A stretch of 64,000 bases of DNA from Candidatus Omnitrophota bacterium (GCA_015232565.1 JADFZK010000004.1:11907-75906); one strand, 5' to 3'; positions 4,202-40,743 are shown, counted from the stretch's first letter. Notes: a model not told the origin generated them from the letters alone. A program made the numbers and translations.

Positions 4202-4266
4202 ACTGAATACCCCATTTTAGTTTTTCAACAAAAGAATTCTTGACGCCACGGCGGCCCTGAATACTA

Positions 4267-4497: not shown

Positions 4498-4500
4498 GGA

Positions 4501-4722: not shown

Positions 4723-4737
4723 GGCTTTATCTCTTTG

Positions 4738-5013
4738 TTAGTTTCCGGGTGTTACGGCGGCTATCTTTTCTTCGATCATTATGTTGCACTCATTCGCAAA
4801 GAACCTGACCACCCCACCCTTGACCGGCAAACGCTTTTCCCAGTTGATAATAATTTCACCGGCCACTATCCCGATCAACGGGTAATGATAGGCCAGCAAT
4901 TCATATTCACCGCGATCCCCGGTAATAAAAACACTGCTGACCTCTTCTTCCAGGATCAAACGCTTGGCGCTCAGGATCACACAGCGAAAATTGCCTTTAT
5001 ACTTGGATGCCAT
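4738..5013 (-). CDS. atpC: ATP synthase epsilon subunit, short form (N-terminal beta-sandwich only)
   Basis: 91 aa; beta-rich sequence with GEYELLAYHYPLIGIVAGEI resembling the epsilon N-terminal domain; position within the atp cluster; lacks the usual C-terminal helical hairpin. Confidence 0.5.
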   Translation of the reverse strand: MASKYKGNFRCVILSAKRLILEEEVSSVFITGDRGEYELLAYHYPLIGIVAGEIIINWEKRLPVKGGVVRFFANECNIMIEEKIAAVTPGN

Positions 5014-5032
5014 TATGCCTGCCCTCGCCCAC

Positions 5033-6520: not shown

Positions 6521-7848
6521 GCATCGTCTTTCTTTTCTTCTTTCGGCATTGTCATTTCTTCCTGTTTCTTTTCTTTTGCCGTCCGTAAGAACCAGGTTAT
6601 AAAATGGATAAAGGTGAACAAAGCCAGGAAGATCATAACACTGCCAATGATTTTCCAGGCGGCGTTAACAGTCGGCTTTTTGTCAAAGATAGCCTGGGAA
6701 ACCCGTGCCAGCGACTTCATGGACTGGATCTTCTGCATTACGTTCTTGATCTTGCTTTTTTCCAGCTTCGCCCGGTGCTGAGCCAGCAACTTCTCCAGGG
6801 CCACACAATCACTGCGTGTTTGTGCCAGGCGTTTCTGATTGATCCGAAAAGCACCTATGTGCTGTTGAATATCCGGTTGCTGCATTGCTTGCAGTGAGGA
6901 GATCAACTCTAAATTATTTGTGATCTCGTTAAACAAAGTCTTGGCCGTACCGGAAAACTCCGACGCTTGCAACGAAGCATAGACATTTGTAGAACGCTCC
7001 TTGATAAAATCTATATCTTTCTGTGGTACAAACCACACATCCCGAATACCGATGCGGATATTCTTCTTTTCGTTTGCCCCCAGGTCTTCTTCCTTAAAAA
7101 GAAAAGGCGCCTGCTTGTTCTCATCAAAACGGATCTCGTACCCCTGGCGATCTACCACATCTTCCGGCCGTACTTCAAGCGGCAGAAAATGCTGCTGCTT
7201 AACTTTCTTTAATTTATCAGTAGGATTCGAAACTTCCAAAACATAATTGATAATTTTCTTACTTTCCTGATCCTGCGCATCCGAGCGCCAATAATCGATA
7301 TATTTGGCTTTGGTATTAATGTCTTCCAGAGTTTGTAAATGACTGCGGTAAGTGTCTATACGCTGGTCTATCGAACCGGTAGCCTGAGACTGCTCGCTTA
7401 GTACGTAATCAAGCTTGGCAATAAGTTTTTCTTTAAGCTGCTGGCCATTCTCAGCGCTACGCTCCGCGCCCATTTCATTGAAACCCTGCTCAATGTTCTG
7501 ACGAATATCGGCTATCTTTTCATTGGAAATACGCCAGACATCGCGGATCTTGACTTTAAAAGTGCGGGATTCTTTAGGCTGTAAAAGACATTTACCGTGC
7601 AGGAAATAACCGGCATCTTTAATGTCGTAATCGACTTCCAACCCGGCAGGATCTACAATGTCCGATGGTTTAATTTCACCCGGCAGGCTGAAGCGGATAT
7701 CTTTATCCTGGGCGGTCTCTGTACCATTCACCGCCAGGACATTGATAATAACAGCTGCTGACGCCAGAGAAAGGTTAACACAGCCCGCAATAATTAAGAC
7801 TGCCCAACATATAGCAAAATTCTTGAGCTTTAGGGCGTCAGCTCGCAT
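6517..7848 (-). CDS. Hypothetical signal-anchored coiled-coil protein (N-terminal hydrophobic segment, long helical middle, C-terminal TM helix, lysine-rich tail)
   Basis: 443-aa ORF; N-terminal FAICWAVLIIAGCVNLSLASAAVIINVLA, C-terminal AAWKIIGSVMIFLALFTFIHFITWFL; begins 6 nt after the giant-gene stop and overlaps the atpA start by 4 nt; no recognisable family. Confidence 0.5.
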   Translation of the reverse strand: MRADALKLKNFAICWAVLIIAGCVNLSLASAAVIINVLAVNGTETAQDKDIRFSLPGEIKPSDIVDPAGLEVDYDIKDAGYFLHGKCLLQPKESRTFKVKIRDVWRISNEKIADIRQNIEQGFNEMGAERSAENGQQLKEKLIAKLDYVLSEQSQATGSIDQRIDTYRSHLQTLEDINTKAKYIDYWRSDAQDQESKKIINYVLEVSNPTDKLKKVKQQHFLPLEVRPEDVVDRQGYEIRFDENKQAPFLFKEEDLGANEKKNIRIGIRDVWFVPQKDIDFIKERSTNVYASLQASEFSGTAKTLFNEITNNLELISSLQAMQQPDIQQHIGAFRINQKRLAQTRSDCVALEKLLAQHRAKLEKSKIKNVMQKIQSMKSLARVSQAIFDKKPTVNAAWKIIGSVMIFLALFTFIHFITWFLRTAKEKKQEEMTMPKEEKKDDA

Positions 7849-7854: not shown

Positions 7855-10800
7855 TTATTCCTCGCTTTCAAACCAGGTCTTAACCACGATATCGTCGACT
7901 TTCATGGCTTCCTGTAACGCGCGGATCTTGGCGTCAATCTCTTCCAGCTTGGCGTTAACGCGATCCATATCCTTGGCCTGCTGTTTGGTCAGATTCTCCA
8001 CCAACAATCCGGTATTCTCGAGGCCCGCTAACTTGGCCTGTTCTTCGAGGATCTTGGTGAGCATACCCACGACTTCCTGGGCAAATCCGCCGGCACCCGC
8101 ACCAGCACCCTGGCCGCTGATACCTTCGGCACTTTGTTTCATTTCCTGGACATATTGCGAGAACTCTTCCAGCTTTTCGTAAATAGTAGGCGACTGGCCG
8201 TTAACACCCAGATCATCATTGATGCCCATGGCGGAAGCTAAAGCCGCCCCGGCCGAAGCCTGCATTCTGGCCAGCTGTTTAAACACCGTAATATCCGTAT
8301 CTGCTTGAGCAACTCCCAGCAAGGTCTGAATATTCTTGATATCACCAAAAATGGTCTTGGATTCAGCTTTATCCGAATCGGTTCCCAAAAGCTGTAATAT
8401 TGACTTGAAGCTCTTGGTACCCATTGCATCGGTAATATTATTGATCTTCCCTAACAAGGTGTCCGTCCCGGCGGCATCATCAACACTCCCAACCACATCA
8501 AAAACATGTTGCATATTGGTAATAAGTGTTGGCGCGTCATTAGAGAAGGTCGACAATGCCGTCCAATTAATAGTAGACGTCGACATATTGGTAATATCAT
8601 CCCAATTTACATTTGCTTTGGAGAAGGTAGCCATTTCGCCCCAATTGATCCCGGCCCGGGTCATAGTACCCATATCAGCCCAATCAATATCAGCCGCACC
8701 AACAATACCCATATCTTCCCAGTTAATTGCACCACTGGTCATCTTTGCCATATCATTCCAATTAACAGAGGAATTGGTCATGGTCATCCAATCGTCCCAA
8801 TTAATTCCTGTTTCCAGGAACGAATTCATATCTTCCCAATTAATACCGGCACCGGTCATATACGCCAGGCTATCCCAATTAACACTCGCATCAGTCATTT
8901 GCGCAATGCCATCCCAGTTAAGGCCTTTGCGGGATAAATTGTCGATCTCGGTCCAATTAATACCCGCCAGCGATAAATCACCAATATCCAGCCAATTTAA
9001 GCCAGTGGTACTCATGGTGAAGATATCTTCCCAGTTAATGTGCGATTCACTGATTTGTACGATATCGTTCCAGTTGATCCCTACATCCGACATCACCGCA
9101 ATGCTTTCCCAGTTAATGCCATCATTGGTCATTTGGCTAATATCCATCCAGTTAAGACCGGAATCCGACATCAGCATCATATCTTCCCAGTTAATGTTGG
9201 TAGTGCTCATCTCGGCGATACCGCTCCAATTAACGCCCGTCCCGGACATACTGCTCAATGAATCCCAGTTAATATTAACGCTCGACAGATCGCTTAAACC
9301 TTCCCAATTAACTTGCGCTTCAGACAAGAAACCAAGGCTGGCCCAATTGACACCCTGAGCGGACATGTTCTGAATAGCCGCCCAGTTAATGTCTGTAAGA
9401 GACATTGTAGACATATCAGTCCAATTAATTCCAGAATCCGACATCATCATTAAATCAGTCCAGTTAACACCATTATTTGTTAATTCAGACATATCCTGCC
9501 AATTAATTGTACTTTGACTTAAAGTTTGCAAATCGTCCCAATTAACTCCCGACTCAGTGAAAACTTCAAAATCAGTCCAGTTAATGCCCGAATTGGTCAT
9601 ACCGCTGAAACTCTCCCAATTAATCGAACTTTGGGTTAAGGCGCTAAAATCTGTCCAATTGATCGCATTATCAGTCAAGACCTGCATATCAGTCCAGTTA
9701 ATGCCCGCGTTAGACATTGATCCCAGGCTGTCCCAATTTGCACCAGCGGTCGACATTGATGCAATGTCAGTCCAATTGATCTCGCTGAACGACAAGGTGT
9801 TAATATCCTGCCAGTTAATGCTGGAATTACTTAATGTCCCAAAATCGGTCCAATTAATCCCGTTGTTGGACATACTCATCATATCAGCCCAATTCACGCC
9901 AGTCTCAGACAATTGAGCCATATCGGCCCAATTTACTGCCGCTAAGGTCATAGTTTCAATATCGGTCCAATTAACATTAGATTGAGAGAAGATGCCCAGA
10001 TCGGTCCAATTAACACCGTTAGTAGTCAACGCAGCCATATCCGTCCAGTTAACACCTGCGGCAGTCATTGCTCCGATGCTTTCCCAATTAACACCCGAAT
10101 TAGTCAGGGAATTCATATCGGTCCAATTTATTCCGGTCAAAGACAACGATTCCATATCCGACCAGTTAACCCCGGTCGCCGTCAATAAACTTAAGTCTTC
10201 CCAATTCACGTTACTAATTGTCATCGTTTGCAGATCAGTCCAGTTAACTCCGGTATCAGTTAATGTCTGCAGATCAGTCCAATTAATACTCGAGTCCGAC
10301 AAAGCGCCTATATCAGTCCAGTTAACTCCGGCGTTGGTCATAAAATCAATACTCGACCAGTTCACGCCACTGCGAGTTAATTGATCAATATCAGTCCAAT
10401 TAACGGCAGTTAAACTCATTGAACCAATATCCGTCCAGTTAATGCCTGAACCTGTCAGTTCGGAGAAATTTAACCAGTTAACAGTAGAAGATGTGAGTAC
10501 GGTCAGATCGTCCCAGTTAACAGCGTTAACAGATAGTTTTTCCAGGTCCATCCAATTAACACCGGCGTTGGTCATAATATCCAGATCCGACCAGTTCACT
10601 CCGGTCTGCGCCAGGACGGCCAGATCATCCCAATTTACACCGGTCTGCGCCATTACTGAAATATCAGACCAGTTTACAGTCGAGAGGGACAGACTGCTAA
10701 TATCAGTCCAGTTTATTGTAGAAGTGCCCATCATCGCCAGATCGGTCCAATTAATAGCAGTATCACTCATGCGCGCCAGATCAGTCCAATTAACACCAGA

Positions 10801-37800: not shown

Positions 37801-40743
37801 ATTAACATCACTCCAATTTATGCCGCTTACGGAAAGCGACTCTATCTCAGTCCAGTTAATACCTTCCAGGGTTAGACGGCCCAGATCAGTCCAATTGATA
37901 CCGGATGAAGACAGAGTACCGATATCATTCCAGTTTATGCCCTGGATTGATAAAACATCAATATCCAGCCAATTCACTCCTGCGGTAGTCAGCGCTTGGA
38001 TATCCTGCCAGTTAACACCGGTTTTGGATAAAGAATTAAGGTCGTCCCAATTTATACCCTGCAAAGATAATTGCTCAATATCCGTCCAATTAATACCAGT
38101 TGCCGACAAAGCGCCAATGTCCTGCCAATTTACACCGGTAGAACTGATGACCGAGATGTTATCCCAGTTCACCCCGGCCCCGGCCAAATAAGCTACGTCA
38201 GTCCAATTAATAGTTTCTACCGACAACCGGGATATATCCGACCAGTTAACTCCGGAGGCACTCAACACGCCAATATCGGTCCAGTTAATACCCAGATCAG
38301 TCAACGCTCCAATGTCGGTCCAATTGACGCCAGTAAGGCTCATGCTGGAAAGATCATCCCAATTTACACCGGACGCCCCCAGCAGGCCCACATCCATCCA
38401 GTTAATGCCCGCATCGGACAAAACCTGGATATTGTCCCAGTTAATGCCTTTAGTAGAGAGGGCATTAATATCTGACCAGTTAACCTCAGAGGCCGACATT
38501 TGCGAAATATCATTCCAATTAACACCGCTTAGCGATAAAGTTTCCAAATCTGTCCAATTTATCCCCGATGCGCTTAATGCTCCGATATCGAACCAGTTCA
38601 CTCCATTAGAGGACATGGCCCCAATGTCCAGCCAATTTACGCCCGTCGCGCTTAAGGCGCCGATATCGCTCCAATTAATACCCGTCAAAGACAAGGATTG
38701 CACATCCTGCCAGTTTATATTGGAGAGAGCCATAACTGAAATGTCAGTCCAGTTAACAGCTGACTGAGATAAGGTTTGGATATCGGTCCAGTTGATGCCC
38801 GAATCGCTCAAGGCTTCCAGGTCAGTCCAGTTCACACCCGCAACGCTTAACGCGTTAATGTCTGTCCAGTTAATGCCCGATTGCGCTAACGAGGAAATGT
38901 CCGTCCAATTGATCCCTGAATTGGTCAAGGAGTTCACATTCTCCCAGTTAACCCCAGAGACCGACAAAGTATCCAGATCCGACCAGTTAACACCCGAGGC
39001 ACTCAACACTCCTATATCCGTCCAGTTAACCCCGGCGGCCGTGAACAACTGCATGTCCGACCAATTGATCCCCAGCTCGCTGAACACACTTATATCGTCC
39101 CAGTTTATGCCGGCGATGGTCATGGTCTCGATGTCATACCAGTTCAACCCGCGATCCGACATTACAGTAAGGTCTTCCCAGTTTATGCTGGCGGTGGTCA
39201 GTACTGCCAGATTATCCCAGTTGACCCGGTCGGGCCAGTTAACACCCGCCCCGGTCATGATAGCCAGGTCGACCCAGTTCACTTCGCTGGAAGTAAGCAG
39301 ATCGAGCTCGGTCCAATTAACCCCGGTATCACTCAATGACGCAATGTCAGCCCAATTAATGCCGATCTCGGACAAACTTGAAATATCGTACCAGTTGATC
39401 GCCAGGTTCGACATAACGCCCATGTCCGACCAGTTAATGCCGGTCTCGGTCAAGGAAACCACATCGTCCCAATTGATCCCCACCAGAGTCATGGCGTAAA
39501 GGTCATCCCAATTGATACCGGCATTCGCCATTTTGCTGAAAGTACCGGCCTGCGTGATAACCTCGATGTCGCCCCAATTAATATCCTTGCCCGCTATTCG
39601 GTCAGTAACAGCCCTGATCGCCCCCACCCCGCTTACCAGCACTTCAATGTCCATCCAGTTAACGCCGTCACTGGCCGACAAAATTTCTTTGGCATCTTCC
39701 CAGTTGATCCTGGTGTCAGACAACACGCCGATATCTTCCCAGTTAACCACGGAAAGATCGGCAACATTTGGCTTGACAAGATCCAGAGGAGCATACGTGC
39801 TGTAAGTGCCGGAAGGAATCTCGCCGGGATAAACGCTGGGGTCAGTGATAAGTTGCTTGATGTCAATAACTAAATTGATAAAATATGAATTTTTGTAATT
39901 CGGCGGATTCCAAATTCCGCGCGCAGTACCATCATAACTGTAGATCTTCTGGTCGGCATTAAGCGCGGGCGCAAACCAATCCTTGCCGGCGTCGGGAGTT
40001 AAGGTGAAACTGGACTGTATCGCCGGAGCGGCCGAAGTGGACGCCGCCACCGTAGCCATGTAGATCGTAGCGTCGCAAGTATCCGCAATTTCAATGTTCT
40101 TACGCTGGCCATCGCTTTCCAGCCAGGCGTAGAACAAATAAGCTTTCACATTGTTATCCCACACCGCGGCGAATTTCGGGCCGGTGCCCTGAAACACATC
40201 AAACGGCTGGGAGGTGGCGCCGGTCAAAGTGCCCGCCGTAGCGTTGAGGGTATACATCTCACCGCCGGTCGTGATCTGCAGGTCCGTGAAACGCGCCACA
40301 CCGTTGACCGCAGTAACCTTCACCGTGCCCCGCAGTCCGGCGTTACCCGGGTTGTTAGCGATAGCAATGGTCACCAGGGTAGCGCTGTCACTGGTAACCA
40401 CATTGTTGCTGGCATCGAGAATAGCGACCGCCGGCTGTCTGGAAAAAGGGATTAAAGTTTTTGAGCTGGAGGGAGACGTGATAAAAGCCAGGTGAGTGGC
40501 CTCGCCATGCTTAACGGAGCCCGAACCGGAATTGGCGCTGAACTTGCCGCTATCCTTACCACCGGTATAATTTGGCTCGATGTCCGCGACTGCCGCCCCA
40601 TTGGTTGGTCCACCGGAGAACTGGGCAAAAGCAGAAGCCGCGACGATATTAGATATTATTAAACTAATAATAAATAATATGACGCAGCGGCTGATGGAAG
40701 AAATGGAGTTTTTGATTTTAGCTATTTTCATCCCAGGGATCAA
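7855..40743 (-). CDS. Giant secreted/surface repeat protein (10,962 aa): signal peptide, about 290-aa beta-rich N-terminal domain, about 800 tandem 13-residue N-W repeats, 228-aa helical C-terminal domain
   Basis: Single open frame of 32,889 nt, impossible by chance. N-terminus MKIAKIKNSISSISRCVILFIISLIISNIVAASAFA is signal-peptide-like. Body is xNWxDIxxLSxxG repeated with exact 13-aa/39-nt periodicity. C-terminal tail is coiled-coil-like with GAGAGAGG low-complexity. Confidence 0.9.
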   Translation of the reverse strand: MIPGMKIAKIKNSISSISRCVILFIISLIISNIVAASAFAQFSGGPTNGAAVADIEPNYTGGKDSGKFSANSGSGSVKHGEATHLAFITSPSSSKTLIPFSRQPAVAILDASNNVVTSDSATLVTIAIANNPGNAGLRGTVKVTAVNGVARFTDLQITTGGEMYTLNATAGTLTGATSQPFDVFQGTGPKFAAVWDNNVKAYLFYAWLESDGQRKNIEIADTCDATIYMATVAASTSAAPAIQSSFTLTPDAGKDWFAPALNADQKIYSYDGTARGIWNPPNYKNSYFINLVIDIKQLITDPSVYPGEIPSGTYSTYAPLDLVKPNVADLSVVNWEDIGVLSDTRINWEDAKEILSASDGVNWMDIEVLVSGVGAIRAVTDRIAGKDINWGDIEVITQAGTFSKMANAGINWDDLYAMTLVGINWDDVVSLTETGINWSDMGVMSNLAINWYDISSLSEIGINWADIASLSDTGVNWTELDLLTSSEVNWVDLAIMTGAGVNWPDRVNWDNLAVLTTASINWEDLTVMSDRGLNWYDIETMTIAGINWDDISVFSELGINWSDMQLFTAAGVNWTDIGVLSASGVNWSDLDTLSVSGVNWENVNSLTNSGINWTDISSLAQSGINWTDINALSVAGVNWTDLEALSDSGINWTDIQTLSQSAVNWTDISVMALSNINWQDVQSLSLTGINWSDIGALSATGVNWLDIGAMSSNGVNWFDIGALSASGINWTDLETLSLSGVNWNDISQMSASEVNWSDINALSTKGINWDNIQVLSDAGINWMDVGLLGASGVNWDDLSSMSLTGVNWTDIGALTDLGINWTDIGVLSASGVNWSDISRLSVETINWTDVAYLAGAGVNWDNISVISSTGVNWQDIGALSATGINWTDIEQLSLQGINWDDLNSLSKTGVNWQDIQALTTAGVNWLDIDVLSIQGINWNDIGTLSSSGINWTDLGRLTLEGINWTEIESLSVSGINWSDVNTMSLQGINWLDIGSLSEAGVNWSDISLMAASNINWGDINSLSYSNVNWTDLGSLSVAGINWTDIVSLSQEGVNWIDIGVISSTGINWTDIGRVTSEGINWTDINTLTASGINWESLGVLSLTGVNWTDVETLSASGVNWSDIGVLSANGINWLDIGAMSDASVNWTDIEAISVAGINWGDIDLLSRTGINWNDIVSLSTNGINWSDVDILSRSGINWGNITVMADSGINWSDVNALSTSGINWIDVGLVSDSGVNWTDISALTMAGVNWDDIGALSLKGINWNDVVVLSQAGVNWDEVGTIAATGINWIDLQALSLSGVNWTDIDRLSMSGINWTDVENVSISGINWTDIAALSATGVNWQDIDQMSQAGINWTDVSVLTATGVNWSDIDVFTNSNINWLDLASLSATGVNWSNMQTMTAAGINWTDLGDLSVAGVNWTEIETLSSSAINWTDIGALTIAGINWEDVTTLSKTGINWSDINVMSASGVNWTDVASLTAAGVNWNDLDVISETGINWLDLGTLTNQGVNWLDIQTISDSGVNWTNIELLSVSGINWTDINTFASANINWTDIAALSESNINWTDLNVLSLASVNWQDLSALSSMGVNWNDLASLSAVGVNWIDLGSMSAQGINWTDVAALSVTGVNWVDINRLSTEGINWADVGRLSETGVNWTDIESLSVSNINWTDIETLSVNGVNWSDLAVLSTTNINWDDILGISTQGINWADINALTNAGINWNDVELLSSTGVNWTDLERLSMNGINWTDIGDMTVIGVNWVDIQSLSMAGVNWTDVATFSVSGLNWADIQTLSNSAINWEDFSRLSNVGVNWQDLTALTDAGINWTDIGALSATGVNWEDIGSLSQSGVNWIDLGAMSDSGVNWTDIQALSYAGVNWSDLNAVTLAGVNWTDLAAFSQTGINWSDINTLSAAGINWVDLGALSATGINWTDIGKLSATGVNWEDIGALSQTGINWTDLQTITSSGINWTDIETFTVAGVNWTDVSLLSESGINWSDLNTLSLAGVNWDNVTTLTTAGVNWSDINIFTNAGINWTDVSALSAAGLNWNDVQALTLSGVNWLDVGSLSQSGVNWIDLGSLADSGVNWTDLQTLTSSSVNWSDLNVMSLATINWTDISALTAAGVNWTDVNALTTANVNWLDIEAVTKTGVNWVDIGAMTLAGVNWLDVENLTLSGINWQDIDQMSRTGVNWSDLNYMSNVGVNWSDLNIMNSLGINWNDLSTMTNVGVNWENIGEVSQSGINWTDIESLTVAGINWIDVQSLTLQGVNWSDIETMTRIGVNWTDIETLSRTGVNWADVQSFTSTGINWQDLQSMTMTGVNWTDLQSMTVMGVNWVDLETLSVSGVNWVDVETMSVAGVNWDNVTALSVAGVNWMDVDTLSKAGVNWIDFGSLTNAGVNWSDLGSLSLSGVNWTDISTLAATGVNWTDVGVISETGVNWTDIQMLTVAGVNWSDIDTLSKTGVNWQDIAVLGNAGVNWVDIEALSLSGVNWTDVENLSLTGINWLDIDQMSRTGVNWSDLNYMSNVGVNWSDLNIMNSLGINWNDLSTMTNVGVNWENIGTVSQSGINWIDVETLTLSGINWTDVQSLTMQGVNWTDIESLTESGINWLDVETLSGTGVNWFDIQALSFSGINWQDVQSLTVTGVNWTDIGSLSLAGVNWTDIGALSDVGVNWTDISSLSVSGINWTDIQAISTQGINWSDIDSLTRIGINWTDIGALSATGVNWEDIGSLSQSGVNWIDLGAMSDSGVNWTDIQALSYAGVNWSDLNAVTLAGVNWTDLAAFSQTGINWSDINTLSAAGINWVDLGALSATGINWTDIGKLSATGVNWEDIGALSQTGINWTDLQTITSSGINWTDIETFTVAGVNWTDVSLLSESGINWSDLNTLSLAGVNWDNVTTLTTAGVNWSDINIFTNAGINWTDVSALSAAGLNWNDVQALTLSGVNWLDVGSLSQSGVNWIDLGSLADSGVNWTDLQTLTSSSVNWSDLNVMSLATINWTDISALTAAGVNWTDVNALTTANVNWLDIEAVTKTGVNWVDIGAMTLAGVNWLDVENLTLSGINWQDIDQMSRTGVNWSDLNYMSNVGVNWSDLNIMNSLGINWNDLSTMTNVGVNWENIGEVSQSGINWTDIESLTVAGINWIDVQSLTLQGVNWSDIETMTRIGVNWTDIETLSRTGVNWADVQSFTSTGINWQDLQSMTMTGVNWTDLQSMTVMGVNWVDLETLSLSGVNWVDVETISTVGVNWTDVQSLTEAGVNWSDVETLSKTGINWLDIGILGNTGVNWTDIGALSLSGVNWTDIGNLSVSGVNWTDIQSLSDSAVNWSDLNSLSLSGVNWTDIAALSLNGVNWSDLATLSDAGVNWQDVSSLASAGINWIDLQTITATGVNWQDLGVLSQTGINWLDLGTLSAVGINWTDVDAVTAAGINWTDLAALSLTGVNWSDLNVLTEAGINWQDLDTLTRSGVNWADINSFSNAGINWIDIETLTKSGVNWTDVNALSISMVNWNDLSVMSLNSINWVDLGSLTAQGINWSDLDTLTSVGINWLDIETLSRSSVNWQDLASMTALSVNWQDITALTQSGINWTDLDSSSKAGVNWQDIAVLTDAGINWIDLQTLSTNGINWTDIENLSLTGINWSDLDQLSKNGVNWSDISVMSTIGVNWNDLSLMSNNGVNWTNIESLTLSGVNWTDIESLSTQAINWVDIQALSDSAINWGDLSILSNSSINWQDIAALSATGINWSDVDVLSKTTLNWQDIGAMSTSGINWLSIESMSNNGINWIDIGALSGNGVNWTDIASLSLTGINWSDFGVLGNSSINWVDIETLSTAGVNWNDLSILTDAGVNWNDISVLTTSGVNWTDISLLASTGVNWSDLNVISTAGLNWNNLSEMTTVGINWIDVGAMSLTGINWIDLGTFSQSGVNWADIEMLSKEGVNWSDVTVFSNTGINWADFEVISKKGINWLDIETISTTGINWIDIGVLTTQGVNWLDIDVLSNQGVNWQDIEQISLSGVNWSDIETISVAGINWIDIGTMSVNGVNWSDISTLTQAGVNWNDIQSLTKTNINWDDIQTLSSTGVNWFDVALMSLVGINWTDIQVLSAKGVNWDDIQTMSDMGINWTDIETLSRTAINWSDIGSLSETGVNWTDIGSLTQSGINWSNIETMTVSGINWTNFDAMSVSGINWTDIATLSIAGANWDDITTMSTANVNWSDISQISTQGINWMDVSALSMTGLNWEDINTFSRTGINWTDIGVLSATGVNWADVDVLAKSGINWQDIDVLFKTGINWTDIETLSTTGVNWQDIDTLSKTNVNWNDIDLMSRSGVNWSDLNYMSNIGVNWSDLNVMNSLGVNWNDLSVMTTAGVNWHDVSSLSLAGVNWNDVAVLSETTVNWSDLDLMASAGVNWDNFSVMTAVGVNWTDFAQLTADGVNWNDIALLSDSGVNWSDIDSITNTGINWTDLSTLSNTGINWTDIETLSTTGVNWTDIETVSITGINWQDIDTLTKVGVNWSDIERLSTTGINWQDIGRLSATGINWTDIGSLSLTGLNWTDIEALSVTGVNWTDIGRLSETGVNWTDIGTLSNTGINWTDIDLLTKTGVNWTDIESMSQSGVNWSDLNYMSNIGVNWADLNVMNSIGVNWNDLSVMTTSGVNWQDVNTLTTIGVNWTDVAVLSLTAVNWTDVNSLTTAGVNWDSFSVMTAVGVNWTDFAQMTINGVNWMDVAVLSDNGINWLDIDVLTNKGINWTDVEALSLTGINWTDIGALSVTGINWLDIDVISETGVNWSDLGVLSNVGINWQDIDVLAKTGVNWNDIDVISRSGINWTDVEHLASTGINWTDIELLTKTGVNWSDLNTITTIGINWQDIDTLTKTGVNWSDVESISKTGINWQDLGLVSTTGINWTDIGSASLTGINWTDFETLSVTGINWTDIGRLSETGVNWTDIGTLSNTGINWTDIDLLTKTGVNWADIDVMSQAGVNWSDLNYMSNIGVNWSDLNVMNSLGVNWNDLSVMTNAGVNWQDITTLSNIGVNWTDVETITDSNINWTDITALTAAGLNWNDLQTLTISGINWDDITSMTEAGVNWSELQNFTNSGVNWSNLDSMTNAGVNWESFGSMTSANVNWTDVGELTLAGVNWLDVSVISSLGVNWTDIDVISKTGINWQDIDVLAKTGVNWNDIDVISRSGINWTDVEQLSITGINWTDIDLLTKTGVNWSDLNLITTTGINWQDIDTLTKTGVNWSDVESISKTGINWQDLGLVSTTGINWTDIGSASLTGINWTDFETLSVTGINWTDIGRLSETGVNWTDIGTLSNTGINWTDIDLLTKTGVNWADIDVMSQAGVNWSDLNYMSNIGVNWSDLNIMNSIGVNWNDLSVMTTSGVNWQDVNTLTTIGVNWTDVAALSLTAVNWSDVNSLTTAGVNWDSFSVMTAVGVNWTDFAQMTINGVNWMDVAVLSDNGINWLDIDVLTNKGINWTDVEALSMTGINWTDIGSLSVTGINWLDIGSISATGVNWSDIGVLSNTGINWQDIDVLAKTGVNWNDIEVISRSGINWTDVEQISATGINWTDIDLLTKTGVNWSDLNVVTTNGINWQDIDTLTKTGVNWSDVEIISKTGINWQDLGQISTTGINWTDIGSASLTGINWTDLETLSVTGINWTDIGRLSETGVNWTDIGTLSNTGINWTDIDLLAKTGVNWTDIESMSQSGVNWSDLNYMSNIGVNWSDLNIMNSIGVNWNDLSVMTTSGVNWQDVNTLTTIGVNWTDVAALSLTAVNWSDVNSLTTAGVNWDSFSVMTAVGVNWTDFAQMTINGVNWMDVAVLSDNGINWLDIDVLTNKGINWTDVEALSMTGINWTDIGFLSVTGINWLDIGSISATGVNWSDIGVLSNTGINWQDIDVLAKTGVNWNDIDVISRSGINWTDVEQLAITGINWTDIDLLTKTGVNWSDLNTITTTGINWQDIDTLTKTGVNWSDVEIISKTGINWQDLGQISTTGINWADIGSASLTGINWTDFESLSVTGINWTDIGRLSETGINWTDLGTVSNTSINWSDIELITKTGINWTDINTLTTSGVNWTDIETLTMTGINWTDIETLSKTGVNWSDIDVFSRSSLNWADVEVLTRTGINWSDIGVLGSTGINWQDIDTITKTGINWTDIGALTNTGINWTDIDQLTKTGVNWTDIDAMSQAGVNWSDLNYMSNIGVNWSDLNVMNGLGVNWNDLSVMTNSGVNWQDMGILTDVGVNWTDIATLSASAVNWSDLDVLSTSTINWDNFSLMTTSGVNWTDFAQMTVDGVNWTDIGSLTASGINWSDINDLTNKGINWTDIGAMSLTGVNWTDIEAVSLTGINWTDIGRLSETGVNWTDIGVLSITGINWQDIDTLAKTGINWADIDVISRSEINWTDVGQVTNTGINWTDIELLTRTGINWTDINTLTTSGVNWTDIETLTMTGINWTDIETLSKTGVNWSDIDVFSRSSLNWADVEVLTRTGINWSDIGVLGSTGINWQDIDTITKTGINWTDIESLTHSGVNWIDIETLSSSAVNWADLELLSTSTLNWDNFSLMTTSGVNWTDFAQMSVDGVNWTDIGTLTESGINWSDVNDLTNKGINWTDIGAMSLTGVNWSDISEVTLTGINWTDIGRLSETGINWTDVGVLSTTGINWQDIDILAKSGMNWADIELLTKSSINWTDVAGLTDSGINWTDIQSLTNVGINWADFEILSVTGVNWDDLNSLSDSAINWTDVASLTMTGVNWSDIGSLSLTNINWADIGVLSTTGMNWSDIDVLARSAINWSDIETLSRSGINWSDVEQISTTGVNWTDIDLLTKSGVNWTDINVLTSAGVNWTDISALSLTGLNWTDIQSLSTTAINWQDIETLSVTGINWTDIQSLSATGINWSDIGVLTTLGVNWADIDLMSESSVNWADMSVLTNSAINWTDLDTLTTSGINWSDISQMSSVGVNWIDLETLSVTGVNWTDISTLSSSAINWTDLNTLSMSGINWTDIESLTSSTINWTDISSLTQSGLNWTDLETLAQSGINWTDIQTLSATGINWADVDTLSKTGINWQDIQTLAATGVNWADIDVMAKTGINWTDILTVTTTGINWQDIEQLTTTGINWTDVGAISQTGINWTDIGSLSLTGINWVDIGTISETGVNWSDIAIMSDRGINWTDIALLSESTVNWSDLNVLTTAEVNWASFSAMTNASVNWTDFAQMTLDGVNWTDLASLSDTGVNWQDFNQLTMSSVNWTDVGALSTTGINWTDMNTLFAEGINWSDVGVMSNVGLNWQDIARLSDSGINWTDVERLSVEGINWTDIGAISAQGINWSDIESLSVVGINWLDIEKISTTGINWTDLESLGKTGVNWTDLETMSKIGVNWTDINSLSVAGINWVDIETVSLTGINWSDIGSMSTIGLNWQDIAELSKTGINWSDINTLSTQGVNWTDIERISLSGINWTDINTLTTQGINWTDVERLSVQGINWLDIDALSRQGINWTDIEQLTVAGLNWEDIRTISLTGINWTDIGNMSLTGVNWSDIGTLSSSGINWLDIQTLTDQGINWADIETISRQGINWTDIESLSVTGLNWTDIQQLTSSGVNWTDWSVFSTLGVNWTDLATLSHSVINWADVQTMSAVAVNWDDLTVLTTRGVNWDDVGVISGTGVNWSDIQTLSDQGINWQDIETLSRQGVNWTDVETLTTTGLNWTDIGLLSVTGVNWEDLNTLSRTGLNWSDIDVLAKQGINWQDLETLSRSSINWSDVQTISNQGINWIDIQALSTNGINWIDLALLSDSGVNWTDLNTLTSSAVNWADFEVLTHQGVNWQDIETLTNIGINWTDIQSLTMDGINWSDIGAMSLTGINWLDIETISRQGINWSDIETVSKQGVNWLDIEKLSTTGINWQDLQQLSVTGINWTDIQSLSSTGLNWSDLNVMSIEGINWTDIEQLSLTGMNWSDLDVISRQGINWTDVEQISRQGINWSDIETISTSGINWTDLNTLSLSGVNWTDIEQISRTGINWTDIETLTKQGVNWTDIETLSTQNINWADIQLLSDSGVNWHDLSIMSLSTINWQDFAQVSSTGVNWADMAVMSNIAINWQDINTMTTTGVNWADIDTISKQGINWQDIERLSTNGINWEDIQRLTVTGLNWDDIKALTVTGINWTDVQTISETGVNWTDIAQLSTTGINWTELQTVSLTGVNWTDIGALGLSGINWTDLSSMSTSTINWLDWASLTNEGINWTDLETISQQAINWTDLQTASNIGLNWADIQTLTTSGINWQDIDVLAKSGVNWTDIETISQTGINWTDIQTIATTGINWSDLDVISKQNINWQDIETLSKQGINWIDVQTLTNVGVNWTDIEQLTKDGVNWEDISLMSATGVNWSDLNYMSSIGVNWSDLNVMNSLGINWTDLSVMTNVGTNWADLSVITNNAINWTDFESMTVTGINWSDIASMHASGINWTDLSTLSSTGINWTDLETMTVAGLNWTDLNTLADSAINWADISILSRSTVNWADIETLSNEGLNWADIETISAQGINWSDIETLSLAGVNWTDIQTLTETGVNWTDINILSNKGINWTDIETASLAGVNWTDIDSLSQTGINWTDIEVISKQSINWTDYETLSKQGLNWTDVELLSKQGVNWTDIESLTKQSVNWSDLEVITKQGINWQDIERLTYTGVNWEDIQQLSVSGLNWTDIGSLSVTGVNWTDIEQLSKTGVNWTDLNSFTTAGINWTDLDLFSRSAINWTDISALSLNGLNWNDIELISKTGINWTDIQTISESGVNWADIDVLSETGINWTDIQTISESGINWSDLNILSGAAINWTDMSAMSNQAINWIDLSAMTTQSINWTDMQTLTVQGINWTDIEAISRTGVNWADIQTLSLTGINWTDLDTISKSGINWTDILTLSTSSINWTDIEALSDNGVNWTDIETLSQTGINWIDLNSLTVSGLNWTDIEKLTLSGINWTDIQTLSSTGVNWADLEIMSNVGTNWQDISTISNSGINWIDVEALGKTGINWTDVQTLTQSGINWTDVNTATLSGINWQDIKELSVTGINWQDIGSLTNQGINWTDVEQISKTGINWTDIESLSTEGVNWTDIETITKTGINWTDLERMTLTGVNWTDIQTLTETGINWSDIDVLSNKGINWTDVQTLSSSGVNWADISVMSDIGVNWTDIAAMTDTAINWTDMNTLSSSGVNWTDIQSLSNTGINWTDIDQLSLSGVNWTDIQTITQSGVNWTDLESFSKSAINWQDWAVLTTTAINWQDMNTLTMSGINWTDLDQMSISGVNWTDISTLGNSGINWSDLDIMSNRGINWTDIETLSTSTINWTDLARISTETINWTDLSLMSNSAINWTDINVLSNKGINWLDIEQISTTGINWTDLQTLSASGINWTDISSMSEIGVNWTDIQTLSQTGVNWSDLNYLSTIGINWTDIAQLSSSSVNWTDIETISKQGINWTDLETISSSGINWYDLAAESLSGINWTDIDSMSDSAINWTDLAVFFNTGVNWTDIQSLTLQGVNWLDVESLSKTGVNWSDLSVMNDAGINWADLAQLTGSAINWTDVNTLSDSGVNWTDLASLTGSAINWTDLNILSTSRINWTDIESLSDSGINWTDVEVLHNAGVNWSDFERMTDLGVNWADVAVLSASGLNWSDMQRMTTDSINWEDLAVMTTRAINWSDLGVSTNSSINWLDIEKMTDQGVNWTDIETLSASGINWTDIERLSLSQLNWQDLAVLGNSQLNWTDISTLGNSGINWTDISSLSASGINWTDLDIMSDSGVNWSDWQSMTNMGINWNDIASMSAQGVNWTGLDVLASSAVNWDDMAVLTTRAINWQDLNTMTTTGVNWESLGIMTTAGVNWDDFVVMTELGVNWDSLDVMTKTEINWQDMSVMSNNAVNWMDLSTMSRSGMNWTDLSQMAIAGINWTDLDSMSMSGVNWSDLDVLSNSGVNWTDFSSMSISSVNWTDINSLSTSGINWQDIDQLSKTSINWTDLDILSDSGVNWTDLARMSDTAINWTDLAMMGTSTINWTDISSLSLSTVNWSDISVMAQTGVNWDDLAVLAQTGVNWSDLDIMTNAGVNWMDLEKLSVNAVNWDDLTVLTSSTVNWLNFSELTGSGINWTDIGSMSLTAVNWTDIDQLTRSGVNWSSIDFMTNAGVNWTDIGALSDSSINWTDLQTLTDTGVNWTDLQTMTISNVNWEDLSLLTATGVNWSDMESLSLTGINWTDMNSLTNSGVNWESIGAMTAAGVNWTDMAALTTNGVNWTDLGIFSQSNVNWTDIETMTLAAVNWADMAQLSETGVNWADMMSMSNNGINWTDFGTLSNSSINWQDINTLSFSEINWTDIASMSTAGANWDSLGSMSNAGINWTDMQVLTDNAINWTDFSALTQSSINWESFSGMTNSGINWTDFEVFTESGVNWDDLQTLSQSTINWQDMSELTNNGVNWTDLMMMSDSGINWTDMSTMSLTDINWAAIQNMSAQGVNWASLGFLSEAQVNWEGLSDLSSVNINWDSLSSMSGTGVNWSGIAEMSTTNINWEDMMLMSDSGLNWMDISQMTNDGINWESIAVMSDVGINWNDIVQISESHINWEDIFTMSTTGLNWLDIGDLSLAGINWTEIDNLSRKGLNWDGIAQMTDASVNWDSLAYMTGAGINWEDMNSFLETGINWDDWMTMTNSSVNWNDMAKMTSGAINWEDMGIVGAADIDWADMGTMTRAGINWGEMATFSKANVNWDDITNMSTSTINWTALSTFSNDAPTLITNMQHVFDVVGSVDDAAGTDTLLGKINNITDAMGTKSFKSILQLLGTDSDKAESKTIFGDIKNIQTLLGVAQADTDITVFKQLARMQASAGAALASAMGINDDLGVNGQSPTIYEKLEEFSQYVQEMKQSAEGISGQGAGAGAGGFAQEVVGMLTKILEEQAKLAGLENTGLLVENLTKQQAKDMDRVNAKLEEIDAKIRALQEAMKVDDIVVKTWFESEE
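21200..27800 (-). repeat. Higher-order tandem repeat (unit 1092 nt = 28 x 39 nt; at least 5 units plus 1443- and 858-nt variants) within the giant gene
   Basis: Antisense shadow ORFs ending at 23644, 24736, 25828 and 26920 are spaced exactly 1092 nt and share long identical peptide stretches. Each unit carries the landmark peptide SDLNYMSNIGVNWSDLNVMNSLGVNWNDLSVMT. The segment 21233-21545 is near-identical to 22325-22637. Confidence 0.8.
31090..35225 (-). repeat. Near-identical 1.48-kb intragenic duplication (31090-32573 vs 33742-35225, offset 2652 nt = 68 x 39)
   Basis: Five antisense ORFs recur with identical sequence at +2652 (e.g. 31148..31330 = 33800..33982; 32300..32488 = 34952..35140). 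Direct reading shows one mismatch over the compared stretches. The corresponding 494-aa protein segment (GVNWEDIGSLSQSG...GVNWVDLETLS) occurs twice. Confidence 0.8.

Follow-up and report, generated by a model that had tools for sequence, protein, structure and literature searches.

A secretin-linked 33-kb gene of Omnitrophota encodes a giant Asn-Trp repeat protein inferred to form a cell-surface fibre

Our analysis revealed a single intact 33-kb gene that encodes a 10,962-residue protein, predicted to be secreted, with about 800 copies of a 13-residue Asn-Trp (NW) repeat that was not recognised by the catalogues searched. The family is conserved across Omnitrophota bacteria inside a secretin/type II-IV secretion gene cluster, and the protein most likely forms a very long cell-surface fibre, a reading that is inferred from sequence and gene order and in which we place only moderate confidence. 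The analysed window is a stretch of 64,000 nucleotides from a Candidatus Omnitrophota bacterium (GCA_015232565.1 JADFZK010000004.1:11907-75906). The features described here are collected in Table 1, where L numbers denote related loci and P numbers homologous proteins.

Table 1. Features of the giant gene and its surroundings, in window coordinates.
Position	Strand	Feature	Observations
7855..40743	-	Giant ORF, 10,962 codons from the listed TTG	Likely real start is the ATG at 40731; stop codon 7855-7857
40624..40731	-	Predicted Sec-type signal peptide MKIAKIKNSISSISRCVILFIISLIISNIVAASAFA	Predicted cut before QFSGG; only hydrophobic segment of the protein; N-terminus aligns with P0040 to P0043, which also read ...A-x-A|QFSGG
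39751..40623	-	Head, about 290 aa	No Pfam, NCBIfam or PDB sequence match; full-length head homologues only in Omnitrophota-type loci
40186..40503	-	~105-aa beta-rich domain in the head, putatively Ig-like	46-48% identity to a tandemly repeated domain of other surface proteins; not covered by a Pfam model in this copy
8536..39750	-	NW repeat array, about 800 units of 13 aa (39 nt)	First 174 aa (39229-39750) irregular, then one unbroken run of 783 units
21163..26423	-	Higher-order tandem duplication	About five copies of a 28-unit (1092-nt) block at 85-95% identity
30985..35332	-	Segmental duplication at a lag of 68 units (2652 nt)	33637-35332 against 30985-32680, 97% identical, at least 780 nt exact
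7858..8535	-	Tail, 226 aa, predicted helical	T-D-x(n)-T-[ILV]-F-G-x-[IL] motifs and a predicted helical bundle
7858..8037	-	Most conserved ~60-aa C-terminal module, ...LEEIDAKIRALQEAMKVDDIVVKTWFESEE	Nearly invariant across tails; no known sorting signal found
6517..7848	-	443-aa partner protein	N-terminal signal or lipobox-like IAG|C, two repeated beta-plus-coiled-coil modules, C-terminal TM helix (from sequence and hydropathy); start 6 nt after the giant gene's stop, stop overlaps the atpA start by 4 nt; follows the tail in every locus with enough flank; no Pfam, NCBIfam or PDB match
40872..42512	-	FGE-fold protein 1 (546 aa, signal peptide)	No Cys after the RGG[DS][YW] motif
42545..44143	-	FGE-fold protein 2 (532 aa, signal peptide)	Paralogue of protein 1
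44234..45097	-	Protein with a coiled coil and TPR repeats	Weak PilW/Tgl-like match
45098..46672	-	Secretin of PilQ/GspD type	Pfam Secretin 3.4e-48 and Secretin_N; NCBIfam PilQ 255 bits and GspD 233 bits, both below the curated cut-offs
46669..47289	-	GspC-like bitopic protein	NCBIfam GspC_delta 2.1e-06, below cut-off; one TM segment; conserved upstream of the secretin
1..1087	-	GspE/PilB-type secretion ATPase, cut by the window edge	Pfam T2SSE 8.8e-59 and MshEN; conserved after the atp operon in L120, L123, L124, L126 and L127; directly after the 443-aa gene in L056

The original prediction of one giant gene made of tandem 13-residue Asn-Trp units was confirmed. The frame is the only long one in its stretch and contains one stop in 10,963 codons, the terminal one, whereas the other five frames carry 139-1275 stops and their longest open stretch is 505 codons. 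The listed TTG is probably not the real start, since an ATG four codons downstream starts MKIAKIK... and P0040 to P0043 begin there too. The units follow the pattern G-[IV]-N-W-x-D-[ILV]-x-x-[LM]-[ST]-x-x. We counted 798 NW dipeptides, and 792 of 797 NW-to-NW spacings are exactly 13 residues, the exceptions being four irregular units at the start of the array and one unit that reads D-W instead of N-W. The unit profile is G662 / I388+V367 / N798 / W798 / T329,S132 / D745 / I407,L202,V118 / x / x / L470,M177 / S474,T255 / x / x. Asn is coded by AAT 486 times and by AAC 297 times, Gly uses all four codons, identity between distant units is 0.70 at codon position 2 and 0.41 at position 3, and the same amino acid shares the same codon only 45% of the time. 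Synonymous sites are thus scrambled while N and W are kept (apart from the D-W unit), so the array is old and selected as protein. The single hydrophobic segment lies at residues 12-43 and is followed by AFA|Q; together with the A-x-A site conserved in homologues, this is the basis on which a Sec signal peptide is assigned.

An assembly artefact or a decaying repeat tract instead of a functional gene appears very unlikely. Near-identical internal duplicates could be mis-assembled, most short-read MAGs break inside this gene, and the copy number in the duplicated blocks depends on assembly quality. However, every such block is a multiple of 39 nt, so the reading frame would survive a miscount, and most units are only about 55-59% identical at the DNA level. 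In addition to the single stop and the scrambled synonymous sites, head, tail and neighbours are intact, and equally long open arrays occur in a complete chromosome and in a 125-kb contig.

The family is widespread in Omnitrophota. Of 119 GTDB loci fetched by a 5xNW DNA-pattern scan, 90 hold at least 6 consecutive in-frame 13-aa units (83 without a stop) and give the same consensus over 5,430 units, while the other 29 are unrelated 39-nt DNA tandem repeats in other phyla and were discarded. An exact-sequence search for the window's secretin in the contig index and a megablast of the window against these 119 loci found nothing, so the window's own contig is not in those sets. The family also occurs in metagenomes, and 584 cluster representatives match the repeat profile at E<=1e-3. 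Complete small members of 900, 1,292 and 2,809 aa end in the same tail motif, and others stay open for more than 3,500 aa to the end of the fetched flank, one of them inside the 125-kb contig. In the complete 3.36-Mb chromosome OY759724.1, three 8-kb blocks across the record origin (24 kb) show about 505 units with no stop. A search of metagenome contigs with the 443-aa protein found no relative, whereas a search with an alignment of closer tails was successful.

The repeat did not match any catalogued class, as had been predicted. Searches of a 260-aa (20-unit) fragment against Pfam-A and NCBIfam returned only sub-threshold or compositional hits, for example Lysostaphin_N at 23.6 bits against a cut-off of 60 and Pentapeptide_4 at E 0.058, and no significant match to LRR, pentapeptide, hexapeptide, RTX, PbH1, YD/RHS, choline/cell-wall binding, dockerin, TSP3, HEAT or TPR profiles. 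Head and tail likewise gave nothing credible in Pfam-A and NCBIfam, and precomputed Pfam annotations are empty for nearly all homologues. A PDB profile search with the repeat gave only a spurious match to a repeated epitope tag, and PDB sequence searches with the head, the FGE-like protein and the 443-aa protein gave nothing useful beyond a distant FGE core. PADLOC gave nothing, and no tRNA genes and no Rfam matches occur in the window. Known C-terminal sorting signals (T9SS CTD, PEP-CTERM, LPXTG, outer-membrane beta-signal) were not found by NCBIfam and Pfam searches of the tail, and the protein ends ...VVKTWFESEE, with no terminal aromatic residue and no TM helix plus basic tail. Foldseek of the tail model returned generic four- and five-helix bundles (talin rod, FAT/GIT1, apoE), all with E at least 0.8; the tail is predicted to be helical, in agreement with the original prediction, although its length is 226 rather than 228 aa. 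The head had been called Ig-like. Its ~105-aa domain resembles a tandem domain that lies next to Big_2 in P0056 but is not itself covered by a Pfam model, and no direct Pfam hit to the head was obtained, so that the resemblance rests on sequence identity alone. Literature searches for a 13-residue Trp repeat, and for Omnitrophota with secretin and repeat, found nothing relevant.

The structural interpretation that came with the original prediction is only partly supported. It proposed an Asn-ladder/aromatic-stack beta-solenoid with one rung per 13 residues and a rise of 0.48 nm per unit, and this part is not supported. Two independent AlphaFold2 runs, one with 39 in-register self-segments and the other with 11 orthologues, each gave a helix over positions 3-11 and a loop at x-G-[IV]-N in every unit (a 9-residue helix plus a 4-residue loop) and no strands, though at low confidence (pLDDT 48, and about 56-65 over the first four to five units, lower after). 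We read the motif [IV]-N-W-x-D-[ILV] as a hydrophobic staple plus capping box (N' hydrophobic, N-cap Asn, N3 Asp, N4 hydrophobic), following established helix-capping rules, and N-x-x-D flanked by hydrophobic residues fits a helix N-terminus. The hydrophobic moment of positions 3-11 peaks at 120 degrees per residue, from W3, I6 and L9. Across 5,923 units from 127 arrays, same-position coupling between neighbouring units is weaker than between units i and i+2, for example with z of 2 against 9 at position 1, 5 against 12 at position 5 and 3 against 11 at position 7, while stacked 13-residue rungs would give the opposite. These coupling signals are weak; raw mutual information pooled across genomes was dominated by between-genome composition and was therefore replaced by within-array shuffles, which are still confounded by duplication history. 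By our rough geometric estimate, four large hydrophobic residues per 13 (I/V, W, I/L, L/M) do not fit inside so tight a coil.

Since these tests are indirect, a beta-solenoid is not excluded, although we consider it doubtful. The composition favours beta or coil (T+S+N+D+G = 51%, I+V = 17%, A+E+K+R+Q = 12%), is typical of beta-solenoid adhesins and is poor in classical helix formers, and beta propensity is high at positions 1, 3 and 6. Position 7, in the middle of the proposed helix, is G, D, N or S in about half of the units, and over the whole unit the hydrophobicity spectrum peaks at 138 degrees per residue, between the helix and strand values. N is invariant and I/V, W, I/L and L/M are conserved, although sequence does not tell whether they face inward. 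Tight coils of 12-15 residues exist in insect and grass antifreeze proteins, and a variant in which two units form one 26-residue coil would fit the i/i+2 coupling and the even duplication lags.

A 26-residue super-unit had been suggested from alternating GINW and GVNW units, and this alternation is not above chance: there are 328 I/V switches in 782 steps against about 350 expected from the I and V frequencies, and in this protein unit identity falls steadily with lag (lag 1 > lag 2 > lag 3). In relatives, however, 14 of 50 arrays show even-lag similarity above odd-lag similarity and none shows the reverse, and the four strongest segmental-duplication lags in this gene are all even numbers of units (28, 56, 68, 84). 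The suggestion of a fibre hundreds of nm long remains a fair inference from about 800 units.

The genomic context is conserved. The order GspC-like, secretin, TPR, (FGE2, FGE1), head ... tail, 443-aa protein, atpA ... atpD, GspE recurs in dozens of genomes. All 20 loci with a TPR hit have it upstream of the head, and 21 of 23 tail loci in the GTDB scan have the 443-aa gene next, the other two being cut by the contig or block end. The FGE-fold pair is missing in several genomes with a secretin, TPR, head order (L002, L059, L088, L096) and is thus not essential. Catalytic formylglycine-generating enzymes carry a pair of cysteines after the RGGS[WF] motif, as in human C336 and C341, but the two proteins read ...RGGDYQSGSALSFQVSSR... 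and ...RGGSWQDGVGRLQVSDR..., with no Cys, and only a ~50-residue core aligns to solved FGEs, so they are likely non-catalytic FGE-fold proteins.

The gene is real and intact and encodes one member of a phylum-wide family of proteins, predicted to be secreted, with the layout signal peptide, head, (13-residue NW unit)n and conserved, predicted helical tail, in which n ranges from about 20 to about 800. In the most likely mechanism the chain would be exported by Sec, N-terminus first, and the NW units would fold into a thin, regular rod, our best guess being one short capped helix plus a tight G-[IV]-N turn per unit, organised in pairs of units. The rod would be passed outward through the dedicated PilQ/GspD-type secretin encoded just upstream, while the conserved tail would stay at the envelope, probably held by the putatively co-transcribed 443-aa protein with its predicted coiled coils and C-terminal membrane helix. 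The result would be a single-polypeptide surface fibre hundreds of nm long, with the variable head at its tip as the contact or adhesion end and with a length set by repeat number, which would change by segmental duplication of even numbers of units. Our data establish the gene, the repeat, selection on the protein, the family, the synteny and the absence from catalogues, whereas the fold, export through the secretin to the outside of the outer membrane, the anchoring, expression and the function are inferred. The contact between tail and 443-aa protein is a guess from adjacency and coiled-coil content. The repeat region is strongly acidic (D+E 11.9%, K+R 1.8%), with no Cys and one Pro in 10,233 residues, which suits an extracytoplasmic rod. 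NW modules also occur in other secreted proteins between a GLUG/Peptidase_M26_N region and Ig-like domains, consistent with an extracellular spacer or stalk. Omnitrophota giant genes are furthermore reported next to T2SS/T4P-like loci and read as prey-contact proteins (10.1101/2023.11.21.568195; 10.64898/2026.06.07.730766).

It is possible, but in our view unlikely, that the protein is not threaded through the secretin and stays in the periplasm or cell envelope as a scaffold, tether or envelope layer. A Sec signal peptide alone only takes a protein to the periplasm, and the downstream partner has an inner-membrane-type C-terminal helix. Secretins normally pass folded T2SS substrates, pili or phage, and a tethered 11,000-residue single chain has no known precedent. 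Moreover, every ORF of the window that gave a family match lies on the - strand, much of the related loci is likewise co-directional, and gene order is conserved well beyond the cluster, for example through the atp operon, so that neighbourhood alone is weak evidence of function and synteny may be inherited rather than functional. On the other hand, the gene sits between gspC/gspD and gspE in all genomes checked, even where the atp operon is absent (L056) or the FGE pair is missing. Also, 800 units, hundreds of nm by inference, would not fit easily in the periplasm of a cell about 0.2-0.3 um across, and the NW modules of other proteins sit between typical extracellular adhesin domains.

A further tentative reading, which is compatible with a surface fibre and would specify what the rod itself does, is that of a polyvalent carbohydrate-binding fibre, in which each unit offers a Trp platform with Asn, Asp and Thr hydrogen-bonding groups for a polysaccharide of a prey or host cell wall or of the cell's own exopolymer. 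The invariance of W and N and the near-invariance of D and of the S/T position go beyond what packing alone needs, neighbouring genes include two GT2 glycosyltransferases, a polysaccharide deacetylase and a weak GH149-like protein, and published readings of Omnitrophota giants stress cell-wall contact. However, the Pfam, NCBIfam and PDB searches showed no similarity to any carbohydrate-binding family, and in the helix model W, I and L form the buried stripe, so W would not be exposed. We also considered N-W-[ST] as an N-glycosylation sequon and rejected it, since position 4 is S or T in 58% of units here but only 33% across the family.

A more far-reaching possibility, which is not excluded but which we regard as unlikely, is that the NW unit defines a new protein fold class, a solenoid or ribbon built from a 13-residue single-helix unit paired into 26-residue structural repeats. 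The locus would then encode a previously unrecognised kind of bacterial appendage, a sub-micrometre to micrometre-scale fibre made of one polypeptide rather than polymerised pilin, pushed through a dedicated secretin, held at its C-terminal tail by a membrane-anchored partner and tuned in length by even-numbered block duplications. Omnitrophota nanobacteria would use it to reach and hold prey or host cells.

Giant genes of Omnitrophota are a recognised puzzle, and about 15% of the long proteins have no recognisable domain. The NW family gives one such group a clear definition, with an exact repeat, a conserved head-array-tail layout, a fixed place between the outer-membrane and ATPase genes of a secretin system, a conserved partner predicted to be membrane-anchored and a natural length series. 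It thereby makes testable which fold a 13-residue unit adopts, whether a secretin can carry a tethered single-chain fibre and whether fibre length relates to a predatory or epibiotic lifestyle. The repeat also explains why assemblies of these genomes break at this locus, and a simple DNA or HMM signature could be used to find and annotate the family.

Among known systems, the Omnitrophota giant proteins described so far, namely Archaeovorins and Dockerin-type proteins (West-Roberts et al. 2023, 10.1101/2023.11.21.568195) and the 'tandem-repeat scaffold', 'SP-only' and 'Pfam-dark-matter' classes (Nielsen & Lui 2026, 10.64898/2026.06.07.730766), share the phylum, a very long secreted or membrane-associated product and a location beside T2SS/T4P-type secretion genes and a PilZ gene, and their published reading is contact with prey or host. 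Archaeovorins are defined by HEAT, TPR, glycosyltransferase and other enzyme domains with transmembrane segments, and the Dockerin type by many dockerin/EF-hand and thrombospondin type 3 repeats. The NW protein showed no Pfam domains in the three segments scanned (head, 260-aa repeat fragment and tail), no dockerin/EF-hand or TSP3 hits at E<=1 and no TM helices beyond the signal peptide. It is built almost entirely from one unit that neither paper mentions, as judged by term searches, and it fits their unannotated fraction (137 of 916 proteins without any domain hit, and 79 that are SP-only).

Giant repeat adhesins of Gram-negative bacteria, such as the RTX adhesins LapA and MpIBP and SprB of Flavobacterium, are also single polypeptides of thousands of residues in which a long run of extender repeats sets the reach, a distinct end domain makes contact and another end is retained at the envelope, and SprB works with two FGE-fold proteins, GldJ and GldK. 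Their extenders are ~100-aa Ig-like domains and not 13-residue units, however, and export is by T1SS or T9SS and not by Sec plus a secretin. No RTX, T9SS C-terminal domain or Big Pfam hits were found here, and the polarity of retention would be the reverse of LapA. Short-period beta-solenoids (pentapeptide repeats, 12-residue Tenebrio antifreeze, 14-15-residue ryegrass ice-binding protein, RTX beta-roll) share a strict short period, an invariant Asn and a T/S/N/G-rich composition, but there is no profile match, the predicted secondary structure here is helical, there is one Trp per 13 residues and adjacent-unit same-position coupling is weak.

In all-helical short-repeat solenoids and tandem helix-hairpin-helix arrays (leucine-rich repeat variant of Azotobacter, topoisomerase V (HhH)2 repeats, designed alpha/alpha toroids) short helices are joined by tight Gly-containing turns, and in our reading G-[IV]-N resembles the G-h-G hairpin of HhH with Asn in place of the second Gly. 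Foldseek placed the low-confidence repeat model only among such proteins (designed toroids, TALE, mTERF and topoisomerase V), but those repeats are 24-35 residues long with two helices each, TM-scores are at most 0.29 and there is no sequence similarity, so we take this as a description of the model's shape and not as homology. In the EF-hand/dockerin F-hand calcium loop with its exiting helix, [IV]-N-x-x-D-[LI]-x-x-[LM] would match loop positions 8, 9 and 12 and the start of the exiting helix. A canonical calcium site was nevertheless rejected, since the unit is too short to hold the first half of the loop (positions 1, 3, 5), the Gly-to-hydrophobic spacing differs by one and no Dockerin or EF-hand Pfam hit was obtained at E<=1. 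Finally, all four component types of the type II secretion/type IV pilus outer-membrane module (GspC or PilP, GspD or PilQ, PilW/Tgl-type TPR pilotin, GspE or PilB) are encoded around the giant gene in conserved order. The locus differs from such systems in that no pseudopilin, pilin or GspF gene lies inside the window, an F-type ATPase operon sits inside the cluster, and the proposed cargo is a tethered giant rod rather than a soluble enzyme or a polymerised pilus.

Our analysis confirmed that the giant gene is a single open reading frame of 10,962 codons whose only stop is the terminal one, whereas the other five frames of the same DNA carry 139 to 1275 stops and never stay open for more than 505 codons. 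The listed TTG is probably not the true start, since an ATG four codons in begins MKIAKIKNSISSISRCVILFIISLIISNIVAASAFA/QFSGG and homologues start at the same place with the same A-x-A/QFSGG junction. This N-terminal segment is the only strongly hydrophobic one in the whole protein. The product contains 798 Asn-Trp dipeptides, of which 792 of the 797 spacings are exactly 13 residues, and one run of 783 units is unbroken. The few exceptions are four irregular units at the start of the array and one unit that reads D-W instead of N-W. The unit is G-[IV]-N-W-[TSQ..]-D-[ILV]-x-x-[LM]-[ST]-x-x, with N and W present in 798 of 798 units, D in 745 and G in 662. The observation of one uninterrupted giant gene built of tandem 13-residue Asn-Trp units, as put forward in the original prediction, therefore held. 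The coordinates of this gene, its parts and its neighbours are listed in the table.

Positions of the giant Asn-Trp repeat gene, its parts and neighbouring genes (window coordinates; genes of the cluster in transcription order)
Feature	Position	Strand	Remarks
GspC-like bitopic protein	46669-47289	-	
PilQ/GspD-type secretin	45098-46672	-	
Coiled-coil plus TPR protein	44234-45097	-	weak PilW/Tgl similarity
FGE-fold protein	42545-44143	-	one of two secreted paralogues
FGE-fold protein	40872-42512	-	one of two secreted paralogues
Giant Asn-Trp repeat gene	7855-40743	-	listed start TTG
Probable true start (ATG)	40731	-	four codons after the TTG
Domain of the head, probably Ig-like	40186-40503		~105 aa, beta-rich
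Duplicate at a lag of 68 units	33637-35332 against 30985-32680		1.7 kb, 97% identical, at least 780 nt exact
28-unit (1092-nt) block	about 21163-26423		about five copies, 85-95% identity
Stretch compared for G+C with the flanks	12000-30000		
443-aa protein	6517-7848	-	starts 6 nt after the giant gene's stop
F-type ATPase operon	1107-6520	-	atpA start overlaps the stop of the 443-aa gene by 4 nt
GspE/PilB-type ATPase	1-1087	-	cut by the window edge
PilZ-domain protein	61849-62343	-	Pfam 1.6e-07
1,088-aa protein	56166-59432	-	no Pfam hit
Polysaccharide deacetylase	59444-60244		beside the 1,088-aa gene

The array is a selected coding sequence rather than a young DNA repeat. Asn is encoded by AAT 486 times and by AAC 297 times, Gly uses all four codons, identity between distant units is 0.70 at codon position 2 but 0.41 at position 3, and two units that share an amino acid share the codon only 45% of the time. 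Tandem Repeats Finder detected only short patches of 39-, 78- and 117-nt periodicity at 63-83% identity. Two recent higher-order events lie on top of this old array, namely the repeated 28-unit block and the duplicate at a lag of 68 units. Copy number in those two places, and with it the exact repeat count, depends on assembly quality, while the rest of the gene is too diverged to be mis-assembled, and we consider an artefact very unlikely. The G+C content drops to 0.39-0.44 inside the giant gene, against 0.50-0.55 in the flanking genes, which is probably explained by the N, I, T, S, D-rich composition of the repeat rather than by foreign origin.

Searches against Pfam-A and NCBIfam recognised nothing credible in the head, in a 20-unit fragment or in the tail, and a profile of 39 in-register 20-unit segments found no solved structure by sequence. 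The head of about 290 aa contains one beta-rich domain that is 46-48% identical to a tandem domain found in many other surface proteins. Judged from sequence alone this domain is probably Ig-like, as had been proposed for the head, but the copy of Pfam used does not cover it. The remaining ~150 aa of the head are specific to this family. The tail (226 aa) is conserved across the family and carries T-D-x(n)-T-[ILV]-F-G-x-[IL] motifs and a predicted helical bundle, which AlphaFold2 models at pLDDT 70-85 with low-confidence gaps. Its last ~60 residues are almost invariant and end ...EEIDAKIRALQEAMKVDDVVVKTWFESEE. A Foldseek search with the tail model returned only generic helical bundles, and no known sorting signal was found in the tail. 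A 212-aa database protein (P0192) joins a chorismate-synthase N-terminus to the last ~70 residues of an NW-family tail at 89% identity to the window, and is probably a chimeric assembly.

It had been suggested that the repeat forms a beta-solenoid with an Asn ladder, which we could not confirm. AlphaFold2 was run once on 20 units with 39 self-segments as the alignment, and once on the last 8 units plus the tail with 11 orthologues. Both runs placed a 9-residue helix on positions 3-11 of every unit and a 4-residue loop on x-G-[IV]-N, although with low confidence, since mean pLDDT was 48 in the first run and about 56-65 over the first four to five units of the second, dropping below 50 after that. 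In this register the motif reads as a standard helix start (N' = I/V, N-cap = Asn, N3 = Asp, N4 = I/L), that is, a hydrophobic staple plus capping box with Gly just after the helix end, a reading that is an interpretation based on established helix-capping rules. Within positions 3-11 the hydrophobic moment peaks at 120 degrees per residue, from W3, I6 and L9. Other features speak against a helix. The composition is rich in T, S, N, D and G (51%) and poor in A, E, K, R and Q (12%), position 7 is G, D, N or S in about half of the units, and the hydrophobicity spectrum of the whole unit peaks at 138 degrees per residue, between the helix and strand values.

As an independent test, 5,923 units from 127 arrays (this gene plus relatives) were pooled, and coupling between positions of neighbouring units was measured against within-array shuffles. 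Same-position coupling was weak at lag 1 and strong at lag 2, with z of 2 against 9 at position 1, 5 against 12 at position 5, 3 against 11 at position 7, and 4 against 11 at position 11. At lag 1 the strongest couplings link the end of unit i to the start and middle of unit i+1. Stacked 13-residue rungs predict the opposite of this pattern. Furthermore, 14 of 50 long arrays in relatives show higher similarity at even lags and none at odd lags, and the four strongest duplication lags in this gene are all even (28, 56, 68 and 84 units), as are those of 2 and 6 units in relatives, a pattern noted for this gene and for the related loci L009, L027, L082, L091, L094, L104, L112, L116 and L117. A structural or evolutionary period of two units (26 residues) therefore has some support, but these signals are modest and confounded by duplication history. 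The alternation of GINW and GVNW units cited in the original prediction does not support such a period, as 328 switches in 782 steps is at or below chance. The interpretation in the original prediction was partly supported, but its beta-solenoid reading was not. On these low-confidence models and indirect statistics, we regard a helix-per-unit ribbon or solenoid as slightly more likely than not, and a beta arrangement, more likely as a 26-residue coil, as unlikely though possible, with something else, such as an obligate oligomer or a cofactor-dependent fold, making up the remainder.

A search of a collection of 5.8 billion proteins with 20 units gave 39 hits, all short or fragmentary, two of which are named Candidatus Omnitrophica by their source, while several are C-terminal fragments with NW units plus the same tail. 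A DNA pattern for five Asn-Trp codon pairs at 39-nt spacing, scanned over one genome per GTDB species, matched at least 119 loci. Of the 119 loci retrieved, 90 hold at least 6 consecutive in-frame NW units at 13-aa spacing; 83 of these have no stop in the array, while some of the rest are probably unrelated 39-nt repeats. The other 29 loci are unrelated 39-nt DNA repeats. In one locus (L024; CAVYLG010000003.1, 376001-384000) the NW array shows 13 stops and the FGE-like and secretin matches are split into several frames, which suggests frameshift errors of a long-read assembly rather than pseudogenes. Pooled over 5,430 units the consensus is G84 [I56/V39] N100 W100 x D77 [L/I/F] x V46 [L58/M32] [S67/T25] x [A/T]. 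Most family loci are labelled Candidatus Omnitrophota or Omnitrophica, an affiliation inferred for the present gene from relatives at 45-88% protein identity, but many third-party MAGs carry the submitters' label 'uncultured Planctomycetales'.

A full HMMER scan of 1.84 billion cluster representatives found 584 proteins at E<=1e-3 and 148 at E<=1e-10. Complete members of 900 aa (20 exact 13-aa spacings counted), 1,292 aa (40) and 2,809 aa (72, with a 1,594-aa head) all end in ...[TA]W[FM]E... or ...TYFE.... Long members also exist elsewhere. Two metagenome contigs keep the frame open for the whole 10-kb flank (at least 3,515 and 3,537 aa), one of them inside a 125-kb contig. In the complete 3.36-Mb chromosome OY759724.1 the array fills two whole 8-kb blocks and half of a third of those retrieved, about 505 units with no stop, and runs across the record origin; if the 8.6 kb between the retrieved blocks is also array, the gene is at least 28 kb. 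In most short-read MAGs the array runs into a contig end, so this gene breaks assemblies, and the protein described here is the longest complete member we saw. NW modules of roughly 4-9 strictly 13-spaced units (about a dozen NW-type units by eye) also occur in a second architecture, in secreted proteins of 800-1,350 aa (P0081-P0088 of the HMMER scan), where they sit between a Peptidase_M26_N/GLUG region and Ig-like domains (Flg_new_2, I-set, N_BRCA1_IG). This suggests an extracellular spacer module. Looser 'INW' repeats with 11-17-residue spacing occur in two further proteins, P0029 and P0035.

The gene order around the giant gene recurs in related genomes. Searches by tblastn against all retrieved loci repeatedly showed the order secretin, TPR protein, (FGE2, FGE1) and head. 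All 20 loci with a TPR hit have it upstream of the head, and 21 of 29 head loci carry the FGE pair, while several (loci L002, L059, L088 and L096) run straight from TPR to head. On the other side, the order tail, 443-aa gene, atpA was seen in 21 of 23 tail loci in the GTDB scan, the other two being truncated, and where the flank allows (loci L120, L123, L124, L126 and L127) it continues with gamma, atpD and gspE. In locus L056 gspE follows the 443-aa gene directly, with no atp operon between. The NW gene and its partner therefore sit between gspC/gspD and gspE of a secretin system, with the atp operon, present inside the cluster in nearly all related genomes, as a frequent passenger. This operon has a non-canonical order, namely atpA, a 91-aa epsilon-like protein, a 73-aa c subunit, a 76-aa second c-like protein, a 252-aa b/delta-like protein, gamma and atpD, and no a-subunit gene is visible. 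Nielsen & Lui report that most Omnitrophota lack a complete F1Fo by KEGG criteria (10.64898/2026.06.07.730766).

The 443-aa protein has a signal or lipobox-like N-terminus (IAG/C), an internal duplication of a beta-rich module followed by a coiled coil, and a C-terminal TM helix with a charged end. Both FGE-fold proteins lack the cysteine pair that follows the RGGS[WF] motif in catalytic FGEs, and they are probably binding or structural proteins, as GldJ and GldK are in Bacteroidota gliding. Further away in the window, the N-terminal ~200 aa of the 1,088-aa protein weakly match the GH149 beta-1,3-glucan phosphorylase model (123 bits, far below the cut-off of 1150). West-Roberts et al. note conserved pilZ genes near Omnitrophota giant genes (10.1101/2023.11.21.568195), and a PilZ-domain protein is encoded in the window.

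Based on these data we propose a single-chain surface fibre. While the gene, its repeat and the conserved gene order were observed directly, this model is inferred from sequence and gene neighbourhood alone, and that includes expression, the fold, export through the secretin, anchoring and function. In this view, Sec exports the chain N-terminus first, and the acidic NW array, which has no Cys and a single Pro (D+E 11.9%, K+R 1.8%), would fold into a thin regular rod that passes through the dedicated secretin. The head would end up distal as the contact domain, and the conserved tail would stay at the envelope, plausibly bound to the coiled coils of the membrane-anchored 443-aa protein. Rival readings are a periplasmic scaffold, a beta-solenoid fold and a carbohydrate-binding array, the last of which is compatible with the proposed fibre. 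Rod length would scale with unit number, and about 800 units might give roughly 0.2-0.8 um, depending on whether the rise is about 0.24, 0.48 or about 1 nm per unit, an estimate with no structure behind it. Such a length is comparable to or longer than the very small cells reported for this phylum. Length would evolve by block duplication.

Giant genes next to T2SS/T4P-like loci are an established feature of Omnitrophota (10.1101/2023.11.21.568195; 10.64898/2026.06.07.730766), and since proteins there reach 147,155 aa, size alone is not surprising. Those papers define Archaeovorins (HEAT, TPR, enzymes, TM helices), Dockerin-type proteins, multi-enzyme clusters and tandem-repeat scaffolds made of known Pfam repeats, and they also report 137 of 916 long proteins with no domain hit and 79 with a signal peptide only. 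The NW family fits that unannotated, SP-only fraction. Term searches of both texts found no mention of it, and searches of other literature found nothing. A giant secreted Omnitrophota protein linked to a secretion system is thus already known, whereas the repeat class, the defined head-array-tail family, the conserved partner and the precise operon position are new. If the fold and the export route turn out as proposed, the fold class and the appendage type would be new as well.
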